This document shows positions 230-12,501 of a DNA stretch of 13,420 bases, piece by piece (position 1 is the first letter of the stretch; the number at the start of each line of letters is the position of its first letter). A program made the position numbers and the translations under genes. Source of the stretch: a virus (Duplodnaviria > Heunggongvirae > Uroviricota > Caudoviricetes); IMG/VR virus record IMGVR_UViG_2695420863_000013; one strand, 5' to 3'. The notes under the pieces are model-generated. The model was not told the origin of the DNA, did no database searches, and saw only the letters and a list, made by a program, of their open reading frames with translations.

Positions 230-430
230 GAAAATAAAGGGATAACGATGATAGTTTGAGAAAAACAGAAATAACACTTTTGTGGCAAAGCATGGTGCCG
301 GGTGCCTCCCGGTGAATTCAGTATCAGCACCTGAATCCGCGATTACCCCATATTCCTTCTTGCTGATTGCCCCACCGCACAGGGGGATTCACCATGCAGA
401 AGTGTTTTTAATAAACAGCAAACAAAAAAA

Positions 431-593: not shown

Positions 594-1027
594 GTCACAG
601 GTAATTCTCCAGACGAAGACCCAGAACACCGGCAATCTCTTCCAGCACCTTGCGCTCTTCCGGCTCAATTTCGCCGTCTGCCTCCGCAATGGCCACCGCC
701 ACATCCAGCACATCTTCCGCTTCACGCGTATCGTGTTTCACATCCTCGATCTCACGTAACGCCGCACGACGACCAGTTTTAAAGTTCGTATCCAGCTGAC
801 CGATAATGGTTGCGCTAATCGCATTAATTTCTGACGTAAACGCGTACAGCGCAGGCTGATTACGCAGTACCTGTTCGATCTTCGCTTTCTAGGAAGCCTC
901 ACATTCACCATCTGCACAGGCCACCAGGTATGCGGCGTTAATCACCACCTGTGCCAGATCGCGTTTTTCAAACTTTCTAATTTCCGTTGCCGCTCTGCGG
1001 GCTTTTTTTACCAAAAATACCAAACAT
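594..1027 (-). pseudogene. TerB-family (tellurite-resistance TerB-like) gene disrupted by a frameshift and an in-frame TAG
   Basis: ATG at 1027 with AAGGAA Shine-Dalgarno gives MFGIFGKKSPQSGNGN then stop. The TerB-like frame continues out of frame (ARRAATEIRKFEKRDLAQVVINAAYLVACADGECEAS-stop-KAKIEQVL...EADGEIEPEERKVLEEIAGVLGLRLENYL). The shift maps to a T7/A7 homopolymer at 1003-1009 and the amber codon to 889-891. Resemblance to TerB is from recalled sequence. Confidence 0.6.
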
Positions 1028-1196: not shown

Positions 1197-1273
1197 TGGT
1201 GCGTTGTACTGGGTTCGAACCAGTGACCGATTGCTTAGAAGGCAATTGCTCTGTCCGGCTGAGCTAAAAACGC
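1197..1273 (-). tRNA. argO: tRNA-Arg (anticodon TCT), 77 nt with encoded CCA
   Basis: Minus-strand cloverleaf: D stem GCTC/GAGC, anticodon stem ATTGC/GCAAT with loop CTTCTAA, T loop TTCGAAC, 3' CCA. One T-C mismatch in the acceptor stem. Symbol inferred from the ileZ-argN-argO order known in lambdoid/Stx phages. Confidence 0.75.
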
Positions 1274-1286
1274 AGAATACCGATAA

Positions 1287-1363
1287 TGGACCGCCATCGG
1301 AGACTCGAACCCCGCGAAACCAGCTTCGAAGGCTGGCGTTCTATCCCGATGAGCTAATGGCGG
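1287..1363 (-). tRNA. argN: tRNA-Arg (anticodon TCG), 77 nt with encoded CCA
   Basis: Minus-strand cloverleaf: perfect acceptor stem CCGCCAT/ATGGCGG (C1-G72), anticodon stem CCAGC/GCTGG with loop CTTCGAA, T loop TTCGAGT, 3' CCA. One mismatch in the D stem. Symbol assigned by order only. Confidence 0.7.
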
Positions 1364-1370
1364 TATGTGA

Positions 1371-1446
1371 TGGTGGCCCTTGCTGGATTTGAACCAGCGG
1401 CCTGGCGATTATGAGTCGCTCGCTCTCACCACTGAGCTAAAGGGCC
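1371..1446 (-). tRNA. ileZ: tRNA-Ile2 (anticodon CAT, lysidine type), 76 nt with encoded CCA
   Basis: Minus strand reads GGCCCTTTAGCTCAGTGGTGAGAGCGAGCGACTCATAATCGCCAGGCCGCTGGTTCAAATCCAGCAAGGGCCACCA. Near-identical in architecture to E. coli tRNA-Ile2 (ileX/ileY) as recalled; perfect acceptor stem. Confidence 0.85.
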
Positions 1447-1656: not shown

Positions 1657-2346
1657 TCAATCTACTTTTGCAACACTTTGCTTTGAAAATGCCGCCTTTT
1701 GTTTTGAACGCGTTCTCATTACAAACAATAAAGCCTCACTATCCAGTCGGTGAAAAATGTGTTTCATTGCAACCCAGTGACGAGTAAATGTTTTGGACCA
1801 GTTTTTAGTTGTCACTCCCACCAGTAATGCCAGCTCCTTGTATTCATAACCTTCCCCACCAAAAAGTTCTGCTTTTACTGCCTGCGCCGCCAGCCAGATT
1901 AATTTTTTCAGGCGTTCCTGCGTTTTCCCTGCAATTTTTCTGGTACCGGATTGAGTATTAAATTCATTCCACGCCCACTGTGTTATCGCGATCTGATATT
2001 CCCAACAAATACTCCCGCTGTAACACCACAACAACCAGGCTTTATGATGTTCTTCAAGAGACAGAACAGCCCGCCGCCACGATGATGTCGAAAACTCAAT
2101 CGGACTGACCAGAGGAATTGACGTCCCCTTCGCCAGCGATTGCTTTCCCGGGATTGGGGGATTATCCCGCGTTATCATTTTTCCAGTCACTTCATCGCGG
2201 TACCGGATTTTTTTACGCCTGTAACGCCCTGTATCGAACATGGCATTCTCCTGCCAGGCTTCAAGCTGACCTTTTGTTGCCCCACTCAAATCAGCGGTGG
2301 CGATAATGAGCTGCTCACGCACAAACTGTAAATACTGGTTATTCAT
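1657..2346 (-). CDS. Q-like late antiterminator (by position and loose family resemblance)
   Basis: Probable start ATG at 2346, overlapping the rusA TGA stop as ATGA (the track ORF begins 2 codons earlier at GTG 2352). Immediately upstream of a terminator and the tRNA cluster and downstream of rusA, the canonical Q position. No zinc finger of the lambda-Q type was seen, so the family is uncertain. Confidence 0.55.
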   Translation of the reverse strand: MNNQYLQFVREQLIIATADLSGATKGQLEAWQENAMFDTGRYRRKKIRYRDEVTGKMITRDNPPIPGKQSLAKGTSIPLVSPIEFSTSSWRRAVLSLEEHHKAWLLWCYSGSICWEYQIAITQWAWNEFNTQSGTRKIAGKTQERLKKLIWLAAQAVKAELFGGEGYEYKELALLVGVTTKNWSKTFTRHWVAMKHIFHRLDSEALLFVMRTRSKQKAAFSKQSVAKVD

Positions 2347-2708: not shown

Positions 2709-3764
2709 TTATGCTTTCCACTTCAGGACGCCCGAATTTCTCGCGTGCATTAAAAAACGAATCAGCAACAACAGCTGGCTGCCGTGTTTTTCTTCAAAAT
2801 CTTTTACCCCGGCGTGCAGTTCGTTATGACATTTACGGCACAGCGGAATAACAAACAAATCGTCAGCCTTCGTTCCCATCCCTCCTAGTCCATGACCAAT
2901 GATGTGATGCGGATCATCTGCCTGATTGTCACACGTCATGCATTTCTGCGTTTTTACCCAGCGCGTGTATACGGGCATCTCTTCCCGTTGTGGTTTCTGG
3001 CGCTGGAGATACTGAGCCGGTGACTCCGGATCAACGGCAATGCTTACCACCGTCTTTTCCTGTGGCGGGTTTTGCTGGTGGGCGTGAGGCATCGGCGCAA
3101 GATTTTTTGTGCGCTGCTTCAGTATGCTGGTGGCGGTCTGCTCTCCCGGCACGATGTCGCTTTCACGGTACATTGAGCGGATTTTTTCCGCACGCAACCC
3201 CAGCGAACGACGTAATACCGCTTCCGGTAGCGCGTCCGCCACCTGATTGCGGACCGCCCACCAGGATAATTCAGCCAGCGATAATTCCCGTTCCTGCGAG
3301 CCATTCATTGCATGGCGTATGACGTCAATCATCCATGCAGACAGGTTTTGGTGAGCAAGTTGCCCGAGTGATTCGGAGGTCTGGTCGCGCAGCTGGTTGT
3401 CGCAGTGCCAGCACAACACCATTGCGCCGGTACCATAACGGTGAATGACGGTTTCACTGTGGTGATAATCGCCGTGTGGCCACTGGCAGGATTTAACATG
3501 GCGCAGTAACCAATCAGACAATGCGCCAGCGCCACCAGCAGCACGAATCACTCGTTCGTCGCTGAAAAATGGCAGTAATGATTTATCCTCCGCCAGCGGC
3601 TGGCGAACGGCAGGAACGACCCCGGACGGCAGATTACGCATGCTTTTCGGTTCCGGCTCCACCAGTACCCGGGTATTGTGGAATACCGGCATGGATTCAC
3701 GGCCCGGCTTAACGATCACCAGCCCGAGTTCCGGTACCAGAACAGGTCGAAGTAATACCCGCAC
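2709..3764 (-). CDS. DUF968-type phage protein (YdfU-like) with a C-terminal HNH nuclease motif
   Basis: 351-aa ORF with GTG start at 3764 preceded by GGAGGT Shine-Dalgarno. C-terminus has CMTCDNQ...HHIIGH...CRKCHNELH (CxxC...HH...CxxCHxxxH, HNH-like). Same position as ydfU in the Qin prophage (quuQ-ydfU-rem-hokD), as recalled. Confidence 0.6.
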   Translation of the reverse strand: MRVLLRPVLVPELGLVIVKPGRESMPVFHNTRVLVEPEPKSMRNLPSGVVPAVRQPLAEDKSLLPFFSDERVIRAAGGAGALSDWLLRHVKSCQWPHGDYHHSETVIHRYGTGAMVLCWHCDNQLRDQTSESLGQLAHQNLSAWMIDVIRHAMNGSQERELSLAELSWWAVRNQVADALPEAVLRRSLGLRAEKIRSMYRESDIVPGEQTATSILKQRTKNLAPMPHAHQQNPPQEKTVVSIAVDPESPAQYLQRQKPQREEMPVYTRWVKTQKCMTCDNQADDPHHIIGHGLGGMGTKADDLFVIPLCRKCHNELHAGVKDFEEKHGSQLLLLIRFLMHARNSGVLKWKA

Positions 3765-4080
3765 GTTACCTCCAGATGCGTTGCTGGAATGTGCGGGACG
3801 GACGCGGTGGGCGTTCGGAGTAAGGGAGTCTGACTGAGATTATCCAGTGACGATAGTCGAGACTAAGAGCTTTCTTAACCTCGTATCCACGCCTGCGGTA
3901 ACACTGAATTATCCATTCAGCCTGCTCTTCAGTGCATGGAGGATGCTGGAACCAGTCTGATGTGAATGCGTGAAAACGCCGTCCGCACCTGCTGGCAAAG
4001 ACAGCAGAATCATTAGAATTGTGTAATTTGGTATCGTGCGCCATCGGTTGTCTCTGCTGGCGCAGCAGGTGCCAGTTGTT
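3067..4080. repeat. Direct repeat copy A of a ~1-kb segment (5' two-thirds of DUF968 gene + small basic protein gene)
   Basis: Sequence from 3067 is identical or near-identical to 4413 onward (ctggtgggcgtgaggcatcggcgcaagattttttgtgcgctgcttcag...); homology continues with increasing divergence into the small-protein genes. Confidence 0.7.
3766..4044 (-). CDS. Small basic phage protein (Rem-like position), copy 1 of a paralogous pair
   Basis: Start placed at internal ATG 4044 (MAHDTKLHNSNDSAVFASRCGRR...) by alignment with the paralog at 5103..5375; the longer track ORF (to 4173) would run through the hok terminator. Stop lies 1 nt before the DUF968 start. Confidence 0.5.
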   Translation of the reverse strand: MAHDTKLHNSNDSAVFASRCGRRFHAFTSDWFQHPPCTEEQAEWIIQCYRRRGYEVKKALSLDYRHWIISVRLPYSERPPRPSRTFQQRIWR

Positions 4081-4116
4081 CAGGCTGGCGTGCGAATTGT
4101 AAACCAGAATGCCAGG

Positions 4117-4143
4117 AAAAAACAAAACCCGCCGAAGCGGGTT
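4117..4143 (-). terminator. Intrinsic terminator downstream of hok copy 1 (copy 1 of a repeated hairpin)
   Basis: Hairpin AACCCGC-CGAA-GCGGGTT (4126-4143) followed on the minus strand by TTTTGTTTTTT. Confidence 0.6.
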
Positions 4144-4211
4144 AAGTGCGGGTGCATTGAGGATGCCTGACACATCAGAGGTGGCGAGGGATTTCTCCCC
4201 CGCCTGGTCTC

Positions 4212-4367
4212 TTACTCCTCAGGTTCGTAAGCTGTGAAGACAGCGACCTCCGTCTGGCCGGTTCGGATTCGTACCTCGCAGAGGTCTTTCCTCGTTACCA
4301 GTGCCGTCACTATGACGGTTAAACAGATGACGATCAGGACGATTAACATCGCCTTTTGCTGCTTCAT
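4212..4367 (-). CDS. hok: Hok-family type I toxin (HokD/RelF-like), copy 1
   Basis: 51-aa MKQQKAMLIVLIVICLTVIVTALVTRKDLCEVRIRTGQTEVAVFTAYEPEE; matches HokD/RelF as recalled except one A-to-V change. Start set at the MKQQ methionine within the longer track ORF. Confidence 0.85.
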   Translation of the reverse strand: MKQQKAMLIVLIVICLTVIVTALVTRKDLCEVRIRTGQTEVAVFTAYEPEE

Positions 4368-4402
4368 AGCCTGCTTCTCCTTGCCTTTCGGCACGTAAGA
4401 GG

Positions 4403-5101
4403 CTAACCTAACTGGTGGGCGTGAGGCATCGGCGCAAGATTTTTTGTGCGCTGCTTCAGTATGCTGGTGGCGGTCTGCTCTCCCGGCACGATGTCGCTTT
4501 CACGGTACATTGAGCGGATTTTTTCCGCACGCAACCCCAGCGAACGACGTAATACCGCTTCCGGTAGCGCGTCCGCCACCTGATTGCGGACCGCCCACCA
4601 GGATAATTCAGCCAGAGATAATTCACGCTCCTGCGTACCGCTTATTGCGTGACCGATGACGTCAATCATCCATGCTGACAGGTTTTGATGAGCAAGTTGC
4701 CCGAGTGATTCGGAGGTCTGGTCACGCAACTGGTTGTCGCAGTGCCAGCACAACACCATTGCGCCGGTACCATAACGGTGAATGACGGTTTCGCTGTGAT
4801 GATAATCGCCGTGTGGCCACTGGCAGGATTTAATATGGCGCAACAGCCAGTCAGACAATGCACCAGCACCACCAGCAGCACGAATCACCCGTGCGTTACT
4901 GAAAAACGGCAGCAATGTTTTGTCTTCCACCAGCGGCTGGCGAACGGCAGGAACGACCCCGGACGGCAGATTACGCATGCTTTTCGGTTCCGGCTCCACC
5001 AGTACCCGGGTATTGTGGAATACCGGCATGGATTCACGGCCCGGCTTAACGATCACCAGCCCGAGTTCCGGTACCAGAACAGGTCGAAGTAATACCCGCA
5101 C
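4403..5101 (-). CDS. Truncated DUF968 paralog (232 aa; lacks the C-terminal HNH region), probable gene remnant
   Basis: N-terminal ~230 aa nearly identical to the 2709..3764 protein, then ends at TAG 4403-4405 exactly where homology to the hok cassette begins. GTG start at 5101 abuts the upstream gene's stop. Confidence 0.6.
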   Translation of the reverse strand: MRVLLRPVLVPELGLVIVKPGRESMPVFHNTRVLVEPEPKSMRNLPSGVVPAVRQPLVEDKTLLPFFSNARVIRAAGGAGALSDWLLRHIKSCQWPHGDYHHSETVIHRYGTGAMVLCWHCDNQLRDQTSESLGQLAHQNLSAWMIDVIGHAISGTQERELSLAELSWWAVRNQVADALPEAVLRRSLGLRAEKIRSMYRESDIVPGEQTATSILKQRTKNLAPMPHAHQLG

Positions 5102-5420
5102 GTTACCTCCAGATGCGTTGCTGGAATGTGCGGGACGGACGCGGTGGGCGTTCGGAATAAGGGAGTCTGACGTAGATTATCCAGTGACGATAATCGAGGG
5201 TGAGGGCTTTCCTAAACTCATATCCACGTCTGCGGTAGTTATGAATCAGCCATTCGGCCTGTTCTTCAGTACAGGGATCGTGCTGATACCAGTCATATTT
5301 GAATGCGTGAGAACGCCACCCGTGCCTGCTGGCAAAGGCAGAATCAGAATTGCGAAATTTGAAATTATGCGCCATTGTCATCTCCAATGGCGCTGCAGGT
5401 TGCCAGTTGTTCAGGCTGGC
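4413..5420. repeat. Direct repeat copy B of the same ~1-kb segment
   Basis: Pairs with 3067-4080; junction with the hok cassette at 4404-4412. Confidence 0.7.
5103..5375 (-). CDS. Small basic phage protein (Rem-like position), copy 2 of a paralogous pair
   Basis: ATG at 5375 (MAHNFKFRNSDSAFASRHGWRS...) with GGAG 6 nt upstream; C-terminal half closely matches copy 1 (…LDYRHWII.VRLPYSERPPRPSRTFQQRIWR). Confidence 0.5.
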   Translation of the reverse strand: MAHNFKFRNSDSAFASRHGWRSHAFKYDWYQHDPCTEEQAEWLIHNYRRRGYEFRKALTLDYRHWIIYVRLPYSERPPRPSRTFQQRIWR

Positions 5421-6869: not shown

Positions 6870-7500
6870 CACTGCTCACATCCAAATCTTTATCCTTCGT
6901 ACGCCGACGAAGAGGCACCTTATTAATCTCCGCTTCGTCAGGGAGTGTGTTATAATCAAGAGGCATAAGCGGCATCGATGCTGTAGATTGATGAGAAACT
7001 ATACTAATCTGAGCACCATAAGTATTAAATCCAACAAGAGCTACCTCCCAACGAGGCAGTGTGGACTCTAATTCACCATCGCCCTCTTCGGATAAAAAAG
7101 GCTCAGCTATGACTCGCCATGTAATATCTTGCTCAGCCTCAACATCACCAAACAATGAGAGCTGCTCATACTCTACTTTATTTCGACGCAGACGATGTTT
7201 CTTTTTGGGGTTATTAATGCAATCTTTGGTAAATTGTAGCGGAACTTTATTTAAAGCAACTACATAGTCCAACCCCTTGGAAATCATCTCAAGGCCAGGA
7301 ATTGCATCTTCATTTTGAATAAGATGATTTCTGACCCAATCATAAGCCCTTACACCTTCAGACCAGTTGCTGTCTAATGCGTGCTTATGATAGTACAGCT
7401 GCTCAAGTACGTTAGCGATCTCCGCCAACAAGTGGCGAACATAGTTTTCAGCAAGATAAGGTTGAAATTCCCAACAAGGAGCTAACTGATTTTCATTCAT
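6850..7500 (-). CDS. Hypothetical 216-aa protein, first gene of the two-gene module (candidate effector/toxin)
   Basis: ATG at 7500 (MNENQLAPCWEFQPYLAENYVRHLL...). No recognisable motif; has a basic patch KKKHRLRRNK and an acidic C-terminus. AT-rich. Translationally overlaps the HTH-peptidase gene. Confidence 0.55.
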   Translation of the reverse strand: MNENQLAPCWEFQPYLAENYVRHLLAEIANVLEQLYYHKHALDSNWSEGVRAYDWVRNHLIQNEDAIPGLEMISKGLDYVVALNKVPLQFTKDCINNPKKKHRLRRNKVEYEQLSLFGDVEAEQDITWRVIAEPFLSEEGDGELESTLPRWEVALVGFNTYGAQISIVSHQSTASMPLMPLDYNTLPDEAEINKVPLRRRTKDKDLDVSSDGTSGE

Positions 7501-7535
7501 TTCAAGTTTCGCTTTTTTTAGAATTCGTAAACCAC

Positions 7536-7564
7536 ATATTTTCGCATTTTTCTATTTTTGTCAA
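7536..7564 (-). promoter_or_regulatory. Candidate promoter for the two-gene module (perfect -35 TTGACA, weak -10)
   Basis: Minus strand has TTGACA (7564..7559), a 17-nt spacer, and AAATAT (7541..7536), about 35 nt upstream of the 7500 start. The -10 is poor, so the call is tentative. Confidence 0.3.
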
Positions 7565-7573
7565 CCAGACTAA

Positions 7574-7597
7574 TGCAAAAACCCGCCGAAGCGGGTT
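7574..7597 (-). terminator. Intrinsic terminator downstream of hok copy 2 (copy 3 of a repeated hairpin)
   Basis: Hairpin AACCCGC-CGAA-GCGGGTT (7580-7597) with a short U-tract (5 T) on the minus strand. Confidence 0.5.
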
Positions 7598-7858
7598 AAG
7601 TGCGGGTGCGTTGAGGATGCCTGGCACATCAGAGGTGGCGGGAGATTACTCCCCCGCCGGGTCTCTTACTCCTCAGGTTCGTAAGCTGTGAAGACAGCGA
7701 CCTCCGTCTGGCCGGTTCGGATTCGTACCTCGCAGAGGTCTTTCCTCGTTACCAGTGCCGTCACAATGACGGTTAAACAGATGACGATCAGGGCGATTAA
7801 CATCGCCTTTTGCTGCTTCATAGCCTGCTTCCCCTTGCCTTTCGGCACGTAAGAGGCT
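7580..7858. repeat. hok cassette repeat (terminator hairpin + hok + ~40 nt upstream), second copy; first copy at 4126-4404
   Basis: About 279 bp nearly identical between 4126-4404 and 7580-7858, including the hairpin and the whole hok ORF; homology ends at ggctaacct on the upstream side in both copies. Confidence 0.75.
7666..7821 (-). CDS. hok: Hok-family type I toxin (HokD/RelF-like), copy 2
   Basis: 51-aa MKQQKAMLIALIVICLTVIVTALVTRKDLCEVRIRTGQTEVAVFTAYEPEE, identical to HokD/RelF as recalled. Start set at the MKQQ methionine with a GGGGAAG Shine-Dalgarno-like element upstream. Confidence 0.85.
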   Translation of the reverse strand: MKQQKAMLIALIVICLTVIVTALVTRKDLCEVRIRTGQTEVAVFTAYEPEE

Positions 7859-8058
7859 AACCTACATTTGTGAGACATAGATTGGGCCTCAGATTAATGT
7901 TAAGCGTCTTGCAGGACGCGAAATGTTAACTGGGGCTTTTCTCTATCTGCCTTTCAGTGTTCATGCCTGAGACAGATAGCCTCAAGCACCCGCAGCCATT
8001 CTACTTAACTCACGTCACCTCGCCAATATGAAATCAATCAGAAAGGTGATCCATAAAA

Positions 8059-8745
8059 TCACTCCTTCTCTTCTTTTCCGTAGTGGAGTTGGCCAATTTT
8101 GATAAGAGGGCGTCCCTGAGATTTGCGGTGTAGATTGGTATCGCGCAGAGAATACACACAGCCACAATATTCCTGCTGATAGAATTTTTCGCGCTTGCTG
8201 ATTTCAATCATACGGGACGAGCCGCCCTGCTTGCGCCAGTTATAATCCCAGTACACCATACCCGGATAATGCGCAACAGCTCGCCGCCCACACTCGTTAA
8301 CCTGCTGCATATTTTTCCAGCGTGAAATGCCCAGTGAACTGCTGATCACACTGAAACCATTTTCAGCAGCGTACAACGCTGTCCGCTCAAAACGCATGTC
8401 AAAACACATGGTACAACGGATCCCCCTCTCAGGCTCCCATTCCATTCCTTTGGCACGTTCAAACCAGTTGTCGGTGTCGTAATCAGCATCGATAAACGGC
8501 ACGCCGTGTTGTTCAGCAAAGCGAATATTTTCATCCTTACGAATTAAATACTCTTTCTGAGGATGAATGTTCGGGTTGTAGAAAAAGATGGTGTAGTCGA
8601 TTCCCGAGGCCTGAAGCGCCTCCATCACTTCACCGGAACATGGAGCACAGCAAGAGTGCAGTAGTAGTTTGTTTGCCCCGTTTGGGAGCTCCAATTTAGG
8701 CCGTTTGAAATCAGCAATAGTCATAAATATTTTTATTGGGGTCAT
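8059..8745 (-). CDS. DUF208/QueH-like protein (putative epoxyqueuosine reductase family)
   Basis: 228-aa ORF with an N-terminal [11 protein letters not shown] motif and a C-terminal [11 protein letters not shown] motif, which I recall as characteristic of QueH. No good Shine-Dalgarno at either candidate ATG (8745 or 8724). Confidence 0.55.
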
Positions 8746-8898
8746 GAAAATAGCACAGAGTGTAGCATCAGAGCAGGGCTATCGGGAATATATGTCTAAA
8801 TCTGGTAATATCTGGTTTTGACGCAAAGCGGACAACCACGCTGGCTCTACCCTGCGCCATGAAAATGTCAATTCACATCTGAACTAATGCTCTTTAAT

Positions 8899-9324
8899 CT
8901 AGTAACGTCTAAAATACCTAACATTTCCTTGATAAAATGCCAGTACACGCTGCATAGCTTCGCTCTTCCGGCACTCGCGACAGATTATATTCAGGCGCCT
9001 GTCGTAGCGGCGTATTTCGCCGTCTGGTAACGACCAGATAAGGTCCGGATCAACCACTGCAGGTTTCTTCACCTTTGCCCTTGAGAGTTTTTTGCGAGCA
9101 TTTTGCCAGTCCTTACGCGCCTGTTCAGACGGGAATAACCCGTAACCAGAGTTGTATACATCGCCACTGGCAACCAGCTCTCTGGCGAGAACACTCATCA
9201 GATATCTTGTCGCACCTGTCTTGGCTTCCAGTTGCCGCAACGTCTCGCGACCGCTCAGACGTACAAGTTCAACAACCTGCCCTTTAATTTTTTCCCGCTC
9301 TTCTTGTGTAAATACTTTTGCCAT
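8899..9324 (-). CDS. Hypothetical phage protein (141 aa)
   Basis: ATG at 9324 (MAKVFTQEEREKIKGQVVELVRLSG...) with GGAGG 7 nt upstream (track ORF starts at TTG 9339). No family recognised. Confidence 0.5.
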   Translation of the reverse strand: MAKVFTQEEREKIKGQVVELVRLSGRETLRQLEAKTGATRYLMSVLARELVASGDVYNSGYGLFPSEQARKDWQNARKKLSRAKVKKPAVVDPDLIWSLPDGEIRRYDRRLNIICRECRKSEAMQRVLAFYQGNVRYFRRY

Positions 9325-9339
9325 AAGCGCCTCCGGCAA

Positions 9340-10110
9340 TCACTTTTCCGATACAACACGGCGGGAAGAATCAGTAATCTGTCGAACAATATCCCGGTGC
9401 TTGTTCAGCTCCCGCAGCGCGGCGCAGACTCGCTCCCACTTCTGAACATCACTTTTCGCCCTGCGCAGCGCCAGGTTTGCCCTGCGAAGGGACGGAAAAA
9501 TCAGCTCATCTGCTTGCGTTTCGGTAAACGATGGCAACGGCTGCACAATGTCCGCCACAGTTTCTGTTTTAATTTCTTCCTGTGTTGCGGCTTCCCGGAC
9601 TGGTAACGCAGCACCTGCTGGCTGAGGAAAGGCCTTACCATCACTTTCCGTTACCAGCGCGGCTTTCGGCTCTGCTGGTAAATTATCGCCCGGCATGCAG
9701 TAACGAAATTTACCGTTCTGATTAACGCGTGCCAGCCGCCCCGTTGCGGTTACCACCGCCAGCGTGGAAGCAACCTTGCGAGTACTGACACCGAACTTAC
9801 CCGCCAGTTCCTCACACGTTTTAGCCCCATCCTGACCGATAAACTCAATCATCATGTCTGCGGTAACTTTTTGTTCGACCTCCCCGGTCAGCATATCCTG
9901 TGCTTCAGATTTTACTGGCCGCTCTTCGGTTACCCGGGATTCACCTTCGCCAGCCAGAAACCAGGTGTGACCAGTTTTATCAACGACGCCTTTTCTTTTG
10001 AGTTCCCACAGCTCGTTGAGAACCTCTTCACGACTGATATCAAGTCGCGCGGCCAGTTCTACCGATGTGGCTTTTCCCATTGCTTTCAGTGCGTCAAATA
10101 CGGTTTCCAT
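9340..10110 (-). CDS. Hypothetical phage protein (256 aa) with two winged-helix-like segments
   Basis: ATG at 10110 ([43 protein letters not shown]...) with GGAGG 9 nt upstream (track ORF starts at TTG 10128). A second similar segment is [32 protein letters not shown]. Family unassigned. Confidence 0.5.
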
Positions 10111-10143
10111 TAAAATTTCCTCCGACAAAATCGTTTCTCAGAT

Positions 10144-10809
10144 TCAAATAAAACCAGCTGCCTTCCGGCGTTCGTATTCCTGTTTCAGCCGTTCAATTGG
10201 CGTTGGCCCTTGCGGGTGTTTCGCCCCTTCCAGTTGTCGTCGCACTGGCGGAACACTCATCCCGTTACCAACATGCTTTGCCCATTTCGTCAGTTGCCGT
10301 TCCGCAAGTCGTTTTAACTCACCCTGCGTCATCTGGCGCTCAATCCCTCTGGTACGCATTTCGAGGCAGATGTGGTACAGCACAGGCTGAGGCCACGGAT
10401 ATTTGTCGCTTCCGTCATATCGCCAGGACTCATCACGCCAGCGGCGGTACTCCTCCATCACAGCATCCACCGTCAGGCCAAATGGATTGGCCCCGCTTTC
10501 TGAAATCAGCGCCACAAACTCAGCCAGGTCCGGAGGCCATGTTTCACCCGCCCGGCAGCGGTCCATGCACTGGCGGCAGACCTGTCGGATTTGCTGCTCA
10601 GTCATCGCGCCAATCTGTGCAATCCAGAGCTTCGAAGGTGCGGCCCCGTTCTTCTGGGTCCAGCGGTTCGAATAAACCTCCCCCATGAGTTCCCACAGCT
10701 TCCAGACCGTTTCCGTCGCTGATAAATCCGTTTTCACGTTCCCACTGCTCACGTGCTGCCCGAATTTCCTGAACTGCCCGTGATGCGGTGCCACCTGGTG
10801 CTGCTGCAT
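10144..10809 (-). CDS. Replication protein P-like (lambda P family helicase loader)
   Basis: C-terminal region (…DKYPWPQPVLYHICLEMRTRGIERQMTQGELKRLAERQL…PPV…) resembles lambda P as recalled. ATG 10809 has a GGGGG Shine-Dalgarno; this start lies 211 nt inside the upstream O-like ORF, so the true start is uncertain. Confidence 0.65.
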   Translation of the reverse strand: MQQHQVAPHHGQFRKFGQHVSSGNVKTDLSATETVWKLWELMGEVYSNRWTQKNGAAPSKLWIAQIGAMTEQQIRQVCRQCMDRCRAGETWPPDLAEFVALISESGANPFGLTVDAVMEEYRRWRDESWRYDGSDKYPWPQPVLYHICLEMRTRGIERQMTQGELKRLAERQLTKWAKHVGNGMSVPPVRRQLEGAKHPQGPTPIERLKQEYERRKAAGFI

Positions 10810-11644
10810 GGTTTACCCCCTTGCTGACTGGCTTAACCTGCGCCCTGACGTGATTTACGTGACGGGCGAATTTCTGCTCCCACTGAACCTGCGTGAAAAC
10901 TTTCCCCTCCGCTGCCCAGTAGTCCCGGAAAGCGGCAAGTTCAGCAGGTGTAAATTCCGGCTCCGGCAAAGCCATCCCCCACAACGCAGCCCGTCGTCGA
11001 AAATCCGGCGACGGATGCCAGTCATCGACCATCGGAAATTTCCCGATGGGTTCGCTCAGTCCATCCAGGGATGCAGGTTCTGCTGCCTGCAACGGCGTAC
11101 CACTCGACTCACTGGTCGGAGCACTCTCGCGCACGTGCGCGTTATGTGTGGGGTTTAATTCTTTATCTGTATCTTTATCTGTCGTGACTCGTCGTGACAT
11201 GTCGTGACATATGCGTGACTCGTCGTGACACCCCTCATTCTGTTTTCGTAATTTTTCCCTCTCGCGCTGCGCTCTCTTGCGCTCTGCCGGGGATTTCGCG
11301 GTTTGTGAAACGTTGCCATTGTCCTCTTTCAGTACCTGGCGTTTTTCCCATCCGGTGATTAAATCTCCATCAAGTACCCGCCCCTGCATTGCCTGTAAAA
11401 TTGAATCAATTACTTCTTCCGTCACATCAAGCGCACTTGCTAAATCTTCCGTCGTGACATCAATGTGACCACGTAGTGACACGCCGTGACATGTCGTGAC
11501 ATTTCGTGACGCGCTCACCAGAAGGTGGATATACACTGCCATCACTGTTGCAATTGGCTGCCCTGACACCCTGGCAATTGTTCGCCACTTAGGGTCATTT
11601 GGCATGTCATGCCATAATCTGAGCCAGGCGTTAGCCATACTCAC
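10598..11644 (-). CDS. Replication initiator (O-like position) containing internal iteron arrays
   Basis: 348-aa ORF directly upstream of the P-like gene and downstream of the YdaT-like gene. GAGGTG Shine-Dalgarno with GTG 11644 or ATG 11638 as start. Two clusters of periodic repeats lie inside it. The low-complexity C-terminal tail overlaps the P-like gene and may not be real coding sequence. Confidence 0.55.
   Translation of the reverse strand: MSMANAWLRLWHDMPNDPKWRTIARVSGQPIATVMAVYIHLLVSASRNVTTCHGVSLRGHIDVTTEDLASALDVTEEVIDSILQAMQGRVLDGDLITGWEKRQVLKEDNGNVSQTAKSPAERKRAQREREKLRKQNEGCHDESRICHDMSRRVTTDKDTDKELNPTHNAHVRESAPTSESSGTPLQAAEPASLDGLSEPIGKFPMVDDWHPSPDFRRRAALWGMALPEPEFTPAELAAFRDYWAAEGKVFTQVQWEQKFARHVNHVRAQVKPVSKGVNHAAAPGGTASRAVQEIRAAREQWERENGFISDGNGLEAVGTHGGGLFEPLDPEERGRTFEALDCTDWRDD
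11150..11232. repeat. Candidate replication origin: AT-rich stretch with two CTTTATCTGT repeats, then five GTCGTGAC-type direct repeats at about 10-bp spacing
   Basis: GTCGTGAC (or a one-base variant) begins at 11181, 11191, 11201, 11213 and 11222, preceded by ttaattctttatctgtatctttatctgt. Located mid-gene in the O-like ORF, as ori-lambda is in O. Confidence 0.5.
11449..11510. repeat. Second array of six CGTGAC/GTGAC repeats at 10-11 bp spacing (iteron-like)
   Basis: GTGAC cores end at 11458, 11469, 11480, 11490, 11500 and 11510, in the 5' part of the O-like ORF. Confidence 0.45.
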
Positions 11645-11709
11645 CTCTTCTGATACCGAATCTTTTTACTCACAAATTGCCGGAAGTGATCCGGTATGAA
11701 TATTGCGAG

Positions 11710-12135
11710 TCAATGCACAGCCACAATATTTCCTGCAGGGCCACCACGATTCATCTGGTTGAAACCAGCGATCGCCACTGCGACAAAATCATCAGCGTCT
11801 CTCACCAGTCGTTCCCGCGTCTCCACCAGCTCCCGAAAATAAGCTGAACTGTGGCTGCGCATTCGGGCCACCAGCAGAGGCGGCATTGCTTTTTCGATCG
11901 CTGGTAACAACGCCTGAATTTTTTTAACCGCATCAGGAGTGTCTTTCTCCACCCAGCGGAAAATTTTCTGGGTATTGCGAGCCAGGGCTTCCGGATGGCT
12001 GTCGTCATATAATTCCGGGAACGTCATACCAAGCTCAAAATAAGCCCGGGTTATTTCAGCTGCCGGAACTTTTTCACCGTCCGGATGCGCCCAGGCATTC
12101 ATCGCCATGCGGATGTGCTCATGCCTGATTTTCAT
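11710..12135 (-). CDS. YdaT-like protein (CII-position protein of Rac-type prophages)
   Basis: 141-aa MKIRHEHIRMAMNAW...KIQALLPAIEKAMPP...NIVAVH. Start and end pattern and length match Rac YdaT as recalled. GGAG Shine-Dalgarno 9 nt upstream; overlaps the upstream HTH gene by 17 nt. Confidence 0.6.
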   Translation of the reverse strand: MKIRHEHIRMAMNAWAHPDGEKVPAAEITRAYFELGMTFPELYDDSHPEALARNTQKIFRWVEKDTPDAVKKIQALLPAIEKAMPPLLVARMRSHSSAYFRELVETRERLVRDADDFVAVAIAGFNQMNRGGPAGNIVAVH

Positions 12136-12394
12136 GAATCAACTCCGATGCATTTGGTGTGTTAGCCTTGAATCCAACAGGTAAGCCGTCGGTTGGATTC
12201 GGGTAAATATCAGGCCGGAGTTCATGAGGTGTAACCTCGAAATTCGTTACTTCAGCAACACGTAATGCTTTTTCAGGGCTGAATCTTTCATAGCCCCCCA
12301 GCACTCGACTTACATGCACCTGAGATAAACCCGTTAGCTTCCCAAACTGTAGCTGGGTGATATGTTTCTCTTTTAAATAGTCTCTTAAGTTCAT
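12119..12394 (-). CDS. Cro/YdaS-like HTH regulator
   Basis: ATG at 12394 (MNLRDYLKEKHITQLQFGKLTGLSQVHVSRVLGG...) with GAAGG Shine-Dalgarno (track ORF starts at TTG 12400). HTH motif; first gene of the leftward early operon, divergent from the repressor. Confidence 0.65.
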   Translation of the reverse strand: MNLRDYLKEKHITQLQFGKLTGLSQVHVSRVLGGYERFSPEKALRVAEVTNFEVTPHELRPDIYPNPTDGLPVGFKANTPNASELIHENQA

Positions 12395-12501
12395 AGCCAA
12401 CCTTCTACGTTATGCCTCGAGCAAATATTAGCCCCGCTAATTTTAAAGATCAATAGCCAGACTATCTTTGATAATATTGGTAAAACAAATAAACTCTATG
12501 T
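12395..12501. promoter_or_regulatory. Divergent immunity-switch region (operators and promoters between the Cro-like gene and the repressor)
   Basis: 107-bp AT-rich intergenic region between divergent HTH genes; contains the palindrome ATTAGC-CCC-GCTAAT (12427-12441) and a TAATAT -10-like element upstream of the repressor start. Confidence 0.5.

Follow-up and report, generated by a model that had tools for sequence, protein, structure and literature searches.

Among the described hok/sok type I systems, the closest to the locus considered here is mokW/hokW/sokW of 933W and VT2-Sakai (Sp5), with ~93% DNA identity from the hok -10 box to the fbi (fold-back inhibitory) element. HokW is toxic, and sokW, expressed from its own promoter, neutralises it (PMC8621323, Takada et al. 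2021). The sokW RNA of 71 nt is complementary to the hokW 5' UTR, was detected by Northern blot and relies in part on RNase III and Hfq for its action; once the prophage is induced, sokW disappears and HokW is produced, resulting in faster lysis and doubled phage release (PMC8621323). In the canonical hok model, the closed state of the mRNA is formed by a tac/fbi stem, with ucb sequestering the mok SD, and 3' trimming is followed by the tac/ucb stem, Sok binding and RNase III cleavage, as described for R1 (PMC9841398). For R1, exonucleolytic processing from the 3' end, cleavage of the duplex by RNase III, an unstable Sok beside a stable hok mRNA and killing once Sok is lost are established (PMC9841398), and for hokW-sokW in part (PMC8621323). 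The R1 hok/sok and hokC-sokC (gef) loci have the same order of elements as our locus, namely tac, ucb, mok SD, sokT, hok and dcb/fbi (PMC9841398), and the same alternative folding logic.

The locus is located in a 13,420-nt stretch of a Caudoviricetes virus (IMG/VR record IMGVR_UViG_2695420863_000013), which was analysed in full and is hereafter called the window. A preliminary description of this DNA had flagged 7822-8058, next to the second of two hok genes (copy 2), as a 237-bp non-coding region and a possible hok leader or antisense RNA locus. We consider it highly probable that an intact hok/sok type I module is carried in the nin region of a lambdoid prophage and that this region forms its regulatory half. 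As a control region it is already known: it is a textbook hok/sok, near-identical to the experimentally characterised phage allele. The elements of the module are as follows (positions in the window; minus-strand features are given from 5' to 3'):

8026..7998 (-): putative hok promoter, sigma-70-like, with -35 TTGGCG at 8026..8021, a 17-nt spacer and -10 TAGAAT at 8003..7998
7991..7572 (-): predicted full-length hok mRNA of ~420 nt, with a putative start at 7991 and an end past the intrinsic terminator
7991..7980 (-): tac element, GGGUGCUUGAGG, with which the hok mRNA opens; predicted partner of fbi in the full-length fold and of ucb in the trimmed one
7991..7932 (-): 5' tac/ucb hairpin, an inverted repeat and Rfam helix 1, which holds CTATCTG/CAGATAG
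~7936..7930 (-): ucb (anti-SD), GCCCC(AG), within the leader
7931..7891 (-): second leader hairpin, complement of the Sok terminator stem; its 16-nt apex, 7919..7904, is GCGTC-TTGCAG-GACGC
7890..7853 (-): sokT target hairpin, Rfam helix 3, which contains the mok SD GAGG (7890..7887) and the mok AUG (7878..7876)
7878..7666 (-): mok frame of 70 codons, from the ORF list, in frame with hok and with a common stop codon
7836..7830 (-): hok SD, AAGGGGA, preceding the hok ATG
7821..7666 (-): hok CDS, 51 aa (PF01848); identical DNA is annotated as hokD by PGAP
7624..7603 (-): fbi element, with the core CCUCAACGCACCC at 7616..7604
7597..7580 (-): intrinsic terminator of the hok mRNA, AACCCGCTTCGGCGGGTT followed by TTTGC; conserved in hok copy 1 as well
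7835..7863 (+): putative Sok promoter, with -35 TTGCCT at 7835-7840, a 17-nt spacer and -10 TAACCT at 7858-7863
7870-7940 (+): predicted Sok antitoxin RNA of ~71 nt, aligned to the annotated sokW misc_RNA

The hok copy 2 gene is encoded on the minus strand (CDS 7821..7666, 51 aa in the ORF list), and 7822-8058 is therefore positioned upstream of it in terms of transcription. Its Hok toxin matched PF01848 (HOK_GEF) over the whole profile with 82.9 bits against a cut-off of 22, and PF02677 (221.5 bits) confirmed the gene upstream of it on the minus strand, 8745..8059, as a true QueH. The CDS sits inside a longer in-frame ORF of 70 aa (7878..7666), and the succession of an SD (GAGG, 7890..7887), an AUG at 7878 and 70 codons running into hok identifies this ORF as mok. 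Since the mok frame begins at 7878, joins hok in frame and stops at 7666, the flagged region is not wholly non-coding: the designation holds for most of it and fails for 57 of the 237 nt, which fall inside mok. The in-frame arrangement of mok and hok is common to the window, K-12 hokC (annotated mokC) and 933W (annotated mokW), and by analogy with the described systems the translation of hok is predicted to be coupled to that of mok. In R1, mok occupies another frame than hok.

A covariance-model search against the Rfam hok/sok families had been suggested in the preliminary description, and it bore out the proposed hok leader. The scan of the whole window returned RF01794 over its complete model (1-157 of 157) at 7991..7816 (-), with 120.5 bits against a gathering score of 59 and E = 1.4e-27; only 7992-8058, where the hok promoter is located, remains outside the predicted hok transcript. 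The match begins at 7991 with GGGUGCUUGAGG, while the RF01794 consensus opens with GGGUGCUUGAG and closes at the hok AUG. Because the consensus runs from tac to the hok AUG, the family describes the hok mRNA leader and not the antitoxin.

Taken literally, the Rfam name 'sok' would mean that the functional RNA is a minus-strand sRNA of 157-176 nt and that there is no antisense gene on the plus strand, and the orientation of the match at 7991..7816 is indeed minus. The reference loci refute such a reading. In K-12 (L003), RF01794 matched at 602..754 (-), the strand of hokC/mokC, with sokC curated as an ncRNA at 653..711 (+); in 933W (L001), the match is at 1723..1897 (-) and the annotated SokW at 1777..1847 (+). 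With both curated antitoxins (59-71 nt in length) placed opposite to the RF01794 strand, and with the consensus itself being a hok leader, we regard a minus-strand antitoxin as extremely improbable; the true Sok gene is therefore a partial reverse complement of the Rfam match. It should be added that automatic annotation relying on RF01794 as 'sok antitoxin' would misplace both the strand and the length of the antitoxin.

On the plus strand, the annotated 71-nt SokW of 933W (1777..1847) aligned to 7870-7940, in line with the antisense RNA locus proposed earlier. The preliminary description had not spotted any sok-like sequence directly; it is present nevertheless, as the reverse complement of part of the leader. 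The predicted Sok opens with a 5' tail that is single-stranded, continues into a hairpin of 54 nt and ends in a U-rich tail; its complementarity to the part of the hok mRNA with the mok SD and AUG is complete. Folding of 7870-7944 (+) gave -29.6 kcal/mol (z = -4.81), which none of the 200 shuffled sequences equalled; 9-14 nt of the 5' tail stayed free in this fold, and the hairpin is the predicted terminator.

In the alignment with 933W, the Sok promoter matches the sokW promoter region without a single difference. Primer YO-421 replaces TAACCT in sokW, and the resulting 'pro-less' construct was devoid of antitoxin activity (PMC8621323), which identifies the Sok -10, found with the same sequence at 7858-7863 of the window. 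The consensus promoter scan of 7450-8150 did not report this promoter, because TAACCT is a poor consensus match (3 of 6 positions only); the sole promoter-like site it detected was that of hok. With an exact 26-mer of the conserved leader, 120 IMG/VR loci were collected, and 87 distinct full-length sequences, the window counted, were aligned; across these phage copies the hok -10 is conserved, with a mean entropy of 0.23 bits. Given a sokW-identical promoter and a sokW-homologous body overlapping the mok initiation region, we infer from the sequence that Sok is transcribed at this locus and, likewise, that the hok promoter is active.

The two inverted repeats mentioned in the preliminary description were located with slight adjustments. 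The first, GCGTC/TTGCAG/GACGC, placed there near 7905-7920, is at 7904-7919; the second, CTATCTG...CAGATAG, placed near 7940-7975, has its arms at 7943-7949 and 7973-7979 and was extended by repeat search to arms of 21 nt each (7932-7952 and 7970-7990). The 5-bp GCGTC/GACGC stem is by itself statistically unremarkable and not above chance, and the RefSeq copies bear no other annotation, both of which would suit a generic spacer or a QueH 3' UTR, with inverted repeats arising by chance or acting as a QueH terminator. The family match with its E-value of 1.4e-27 and the modular conservation refute this interpretation, to which we give practically no likelihood. In pairwise alignment, homology with 933W begins just upstream of the hok -10 and ends at fbi, and the hok/sok unit is set there beside unrelated flanks, which defines it as a discrete module. 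What makes the 5-bp stem of the hok/sok module significant is its context, namely the Rfam E-value, fold z-scores from -4.8 to -6.0 and the presence of the apex in 86 of the 87 phage copies. The hairpins as a QueH terminator were rejected also on the grounds that the scan of 7450-8150 found no terminator-like site between QueH and the hok promoter.

Folding of the hok mRNA was predicted for two lengths. The full-length molecule (420 nt) gave an MFE of -170.3 kcal/mol (z = -5.96), with GGGUGCUUGAGG at the 5' end paired to CCUCAACGCACCC at the 3' end, and its centroid additionally joined ucb CCCCAG to the mok SD CUGAGG. In the trimmed mRNA (7991..7630; z = -5.58), the tac/ucb hairpin was local at the 5' end (-25.8 kcal/mol if folded alone) and the sokT hairpin was formed. 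The two predicted folds reproduce exactly both states of the canonical model. With regard to the tac/fbi contact, 7601-7609 and 7986-7994 are complementary at 9 of 9 positions, plus an extension; considered for the window alone, the duplex surpasses those of shuffled 5' ends only modestly (z = -2.0), an equally good one having arisen in 8 of 200 shuffles.

The mechanism proposed for the locus follows the canonical one. The promoter at 8026..7998 (-) would drive a hok mRNA of ~420 nt, in which the 5' tac (7991..7980) would pair with the 3' fbi (7616..7604) and the ucb CCCC with the mok SD; closed in this way, the full-length mRNA would be neither translated nor bound by Sok. Slow 3' trimming would remove fbi, upon which tac would fold onto ucb (7991..7932), the sokT hairpin (7890..7853) would form and the mok start would become exposed. 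A separate plus-strand promoter, TTGCCT-17-TAACCT, would make the unstable 71-nt Sok (7870-7940), whose single-stranded 5' tail would attack the sokT loop. The ensuing duplex would cover the mok SD and AUG and then be cleaved by RNase III, and by blocking the translation of mok, Sok would block the coupled translation of hok. Should Sok synthesis stop, the stable hok mRNA would be translated and Hok would damage the inner membrane. By analogy, the role of the module in the prophage could be in lysis assistance, as for hokW, or in maintenance or exclusion, as for R1 hok/sok.

Genome contigs were scanned with a degenerate pattern of 15 specified bases. Most hits were chance matches in unrelated phyla, and ~12 enterobacterial loci were sorted out as genuine with blastn and Rfam. 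Full-length RF01794 matches were obtained for 12 further sequences, including Atlantibacter, Siccibacter, Photorhabdus, Klebsiella (plasmid), Kosakonia and Chimaeribacter; the rest were from two Serratia species, Buttiauxella, Cedecea, E. albertii and a gammaproteobacterial MAG. Alignment of 14 homologs with MAFFT followed by RNAalifold recovered the conserved helices alone, with little formal covariation (4 of 22 pairs), because the variable stems were out of register. This approach was replaced by folding of each sequence between conserved anchors and by RNAduplex for tac/fbi. The second hairpin and the sokT hairpin were then predicted in all 14 homologs, from ~10 genera, despite differing inner-stem sequences, and the tac/ucb hairpin in 12 of them, the exceptions being Buttiauxella and Cedecea. 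The outer stem of sokT, GAGGC/GCCUC, was invariant; among the phage copies, the pair 7977-7945 of the tac/ucb hairpin is AT in 72 and GC in 10. Furthermore, in the other homologs whose available sequence was long enough, a tac-complementary box was present 336-399 nt downstream, and the tac/fbi changes across genera are clearly compensatory, as seen from the following pairs:

Window: tac 5' UUGAGG, fbi 3' CCUCAA
Serratia: tac 5' UCUGGAUC, fbi 3' GGAUCCACGA
Buttiauxella: tac 5' UUAGGGC, fbi 3' GUCUUAAG
Chimaeribacter: tac 5' UUAAGGC, fbi 3' GCCUUCAG

As a negative control we used K-12 hokC, in which IS186 cuts the 3' end 20 bp past the stop codon and fbi has been lost; RNAduplex found no fbi-like box in it (z = -0.8). 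The hokC locus scored 118.3 bits with RF01794 at a DNA identity of ~76% to the window, and its second leader hairpin, the Sok terminator, is ~20 nt shorter. In the RF01794 alignment, the apex of this hairpin in the window appeared as a 16-nt insertion in respect to the family consensus. The apex (GCGUC-loop-GACGC) occurs in 933W as well as in the phage copies mentioned above and is absent from K-12 hokC and from 11 homologs of other genera, which makes it a lineage-specific extension of the Sok terminator stem, confined to the hokW/hokD phage lineage.

Features found in both the window and 933W hokW-sokW are a mok that is in frame with hok, the sequence of the Sok promoter, a 71-nt Sok whose terminator carries the 16-nt apex, and the boxes tac and fbi. 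The two loci share no homology in their hok -35 regions, terminators or flanks, the C-terminus of Hok differs slightly from that of HokW, and 5 of the first 16 nt of Sok differ (GUGAGACAUAGAUUGG here, GUUCAGCAUGGAUUGA in sokW). The 933W module is situated near the right end of the genome, antiparallel to the upstream ORF L0134, whereas that of the window belongs to the nin region, with QueH to one side and Q to the other, and is encoded on the strand that also bears the cro, O, P and Q homologs.

The other close relative is the K-12 Qin gene hokD (relF), which encodes an identical 51-aa Hok and has a 3' UTR, fbi and terminator with 97.7% identity. Homology of K-12-type hokD to the window is restricted to 7576-7835 and ends 14 nt upstream of the ATG, with relE directly upstream; this gene therefore has nothing of the flagged region: neither a hok promoter nor mok or a Sok gene is present, and the elements tac, ucb and sokT are likewise missing. 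Judging from this comparison, copy 2 is the intact form of the K-12 hokD gene and would show the truncated gene as it was before relBE displaced its control region.

Several K-12 chromosomal hok loci are inactive, and intactness of sequence is for this reason no proof of activity. Copy 2 could, like most of the K-12 loci, be a silent relic in which at least one step (promoters, 3' processing or Sok pairing) has failed. K-12 hokD, which lacks the whole leader in spite of its identical protein, would be a precedent for this, and so would K-12 hokC with its loss of fbi to IS186 and the truncated copy 1 in the same window; the PGAP annotation, too, consists of the CDS alone. Such decay appears improbable to us in view of the presence of every canonical element, in register, and of the near-invariance of tac, the mok AUG, the Sok -10 and the hok CDS over the 87 distinct phage copies, which indicates purifying selection; moreover, the 93%-identical hokW-sokW is functional (PMC8621323). 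The mean entropy was 0.008 bits for tac, 0 bits for the mok AUG and 0.13 bits for the hok CDS in these copies. As a complete module, copy 2 would represent a potentially live membrane toxin switch, comparable to the one that in Sp5 accelerates lysis and raises phage release twofold.

A side value of the same alignment is that it points at the Sok recognition tail as the hypervariable part of the module. Nucleotides 1-6 of Sok, which correspond to the sokT loop (7875-7870), had a mean entropy of 1.22 bits (maximum 1.94) and are the most variable stretch of the whole transcribed unit, flanking the invariant mok AUG; for nucleotides 10-16 the mean was 0.74 bits. The 87 copies contained 14 distinct Sok 5' 16-mers on an almost invariant Sok body, with the allele of the window, GUGAGACAUAGAUUGG, in 14 copies and that of sokW in 12. 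Diversifying selection may act on the 16 nt with which Sok begins and on the sokT loop that matches them, giving rise to non-cross-reacting specificity classes; if true, several prophages in one cell would each keep an independent kill switch, similarly to antisense-RNA plasmid incompatibility groups. Relaxed constraint on codons 2-3 of mok accounts for the variability of the tail equally well. Co-resident copies were represented by two pairs only, one with differing and one with identical Sok tails.

Another reading beyond the textbook concerns the trigger. The module is co-oriented (7560-12400, -) with the cro-like, O-like, P-like, QueH, DUF968, RusA and Q genes, i.e. with the early rightward operon, and read-through from pR could therefore cross it in the hok sense and meet the Sok promoter; the interval between QueH and the hok promoter is the one in which the above scan found no terminator-like site. 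Upon induction, this read-through would run head-on into the Sok promoter and could supply the trigger for Hok production. Jointly, the Sok-tail specificity classes and the pR-driven trigger are put forward tentatively, as unlikely.

The main value of the locus is in annotation, and no new question is opened by it. At least 25 complete E. coli chromosomes carry the 501 nt of 7560-8060 with 100% identity. Matches to this stretch occurred in 4938 of 5426 E. coli genomes, at a median of 2 places per genome and a maximum of 9; in addition, ~600 plasmid records carry the leader, mostly with 80-90% identity. At loci identical to the window, e.g. in NZ_CP032515.1, PGAP/RefSeq lists hokD and QueH only, with neither RNA nor mok, and the label 'hokD' derives there from the truncated K-12 gene. 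Thousands of E. coli genomes carry such loci labelled only 'hokD', with Sok, mok and the leader left unannotated.

The first hok gene of the window, copy 1 (CDS 4367..4212; region 4212-4410), is a 5'-truncated orphan without Sok. Its homology to copy 2 is limited to the part that starts at the position equivalent to 7864 and extends downward. Of the Sok gene, the -35 and -10 remain and the body is gone, as are the mok start, tac, the hok promoter and, from sokT, the 5' arm; with RF01794, copy 1 scored only 16.4 bits. Regulation of copy 1 by the Sok of copy 2 was considered and rejected, as copy 1 keeps none of the Sok-complementary segment. Upstream, copy 1 is fused to a truncated DUF968 ORF (4403-5101), whose TAG stop is at the junction. 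A search of 5,426 complete E. coli genomes, INPHARED phages and IMG/VR yielded no contiguous instance of this junction, which represents either a private rearrangement or an assembly artefact.

The DUF968 gene is present twice (2709-3764 and 4403-5101), and so is the small ORF preceding it (3766-4173 and 5103-5387), in each case with one full and one truncated or diverged version. These paired copies indicate a segmental duplication or a join of two nin-region modules around copy 1. In the 3' UTR of copy 1, at 4122-4203 (-), Rfam isrK was matched below threshold (27 bits, where the gathering score is 50; E = 8e-4); the match spans the hairpin of the hok 3' UTR, the fbi region and the terminator, and is probably a mere resemblance of a hairpin with a terminator. 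Finally, a full-length Rfam STnc100 match (100.8 bits) and a three-tRNA cluster were observed just downstream of Q, at 254-426 (-) and 1200-1446 (-). In Stx-type lambdoid phages a tRNA cluster is located downstream of Q, and the arrangement in the window is similar.
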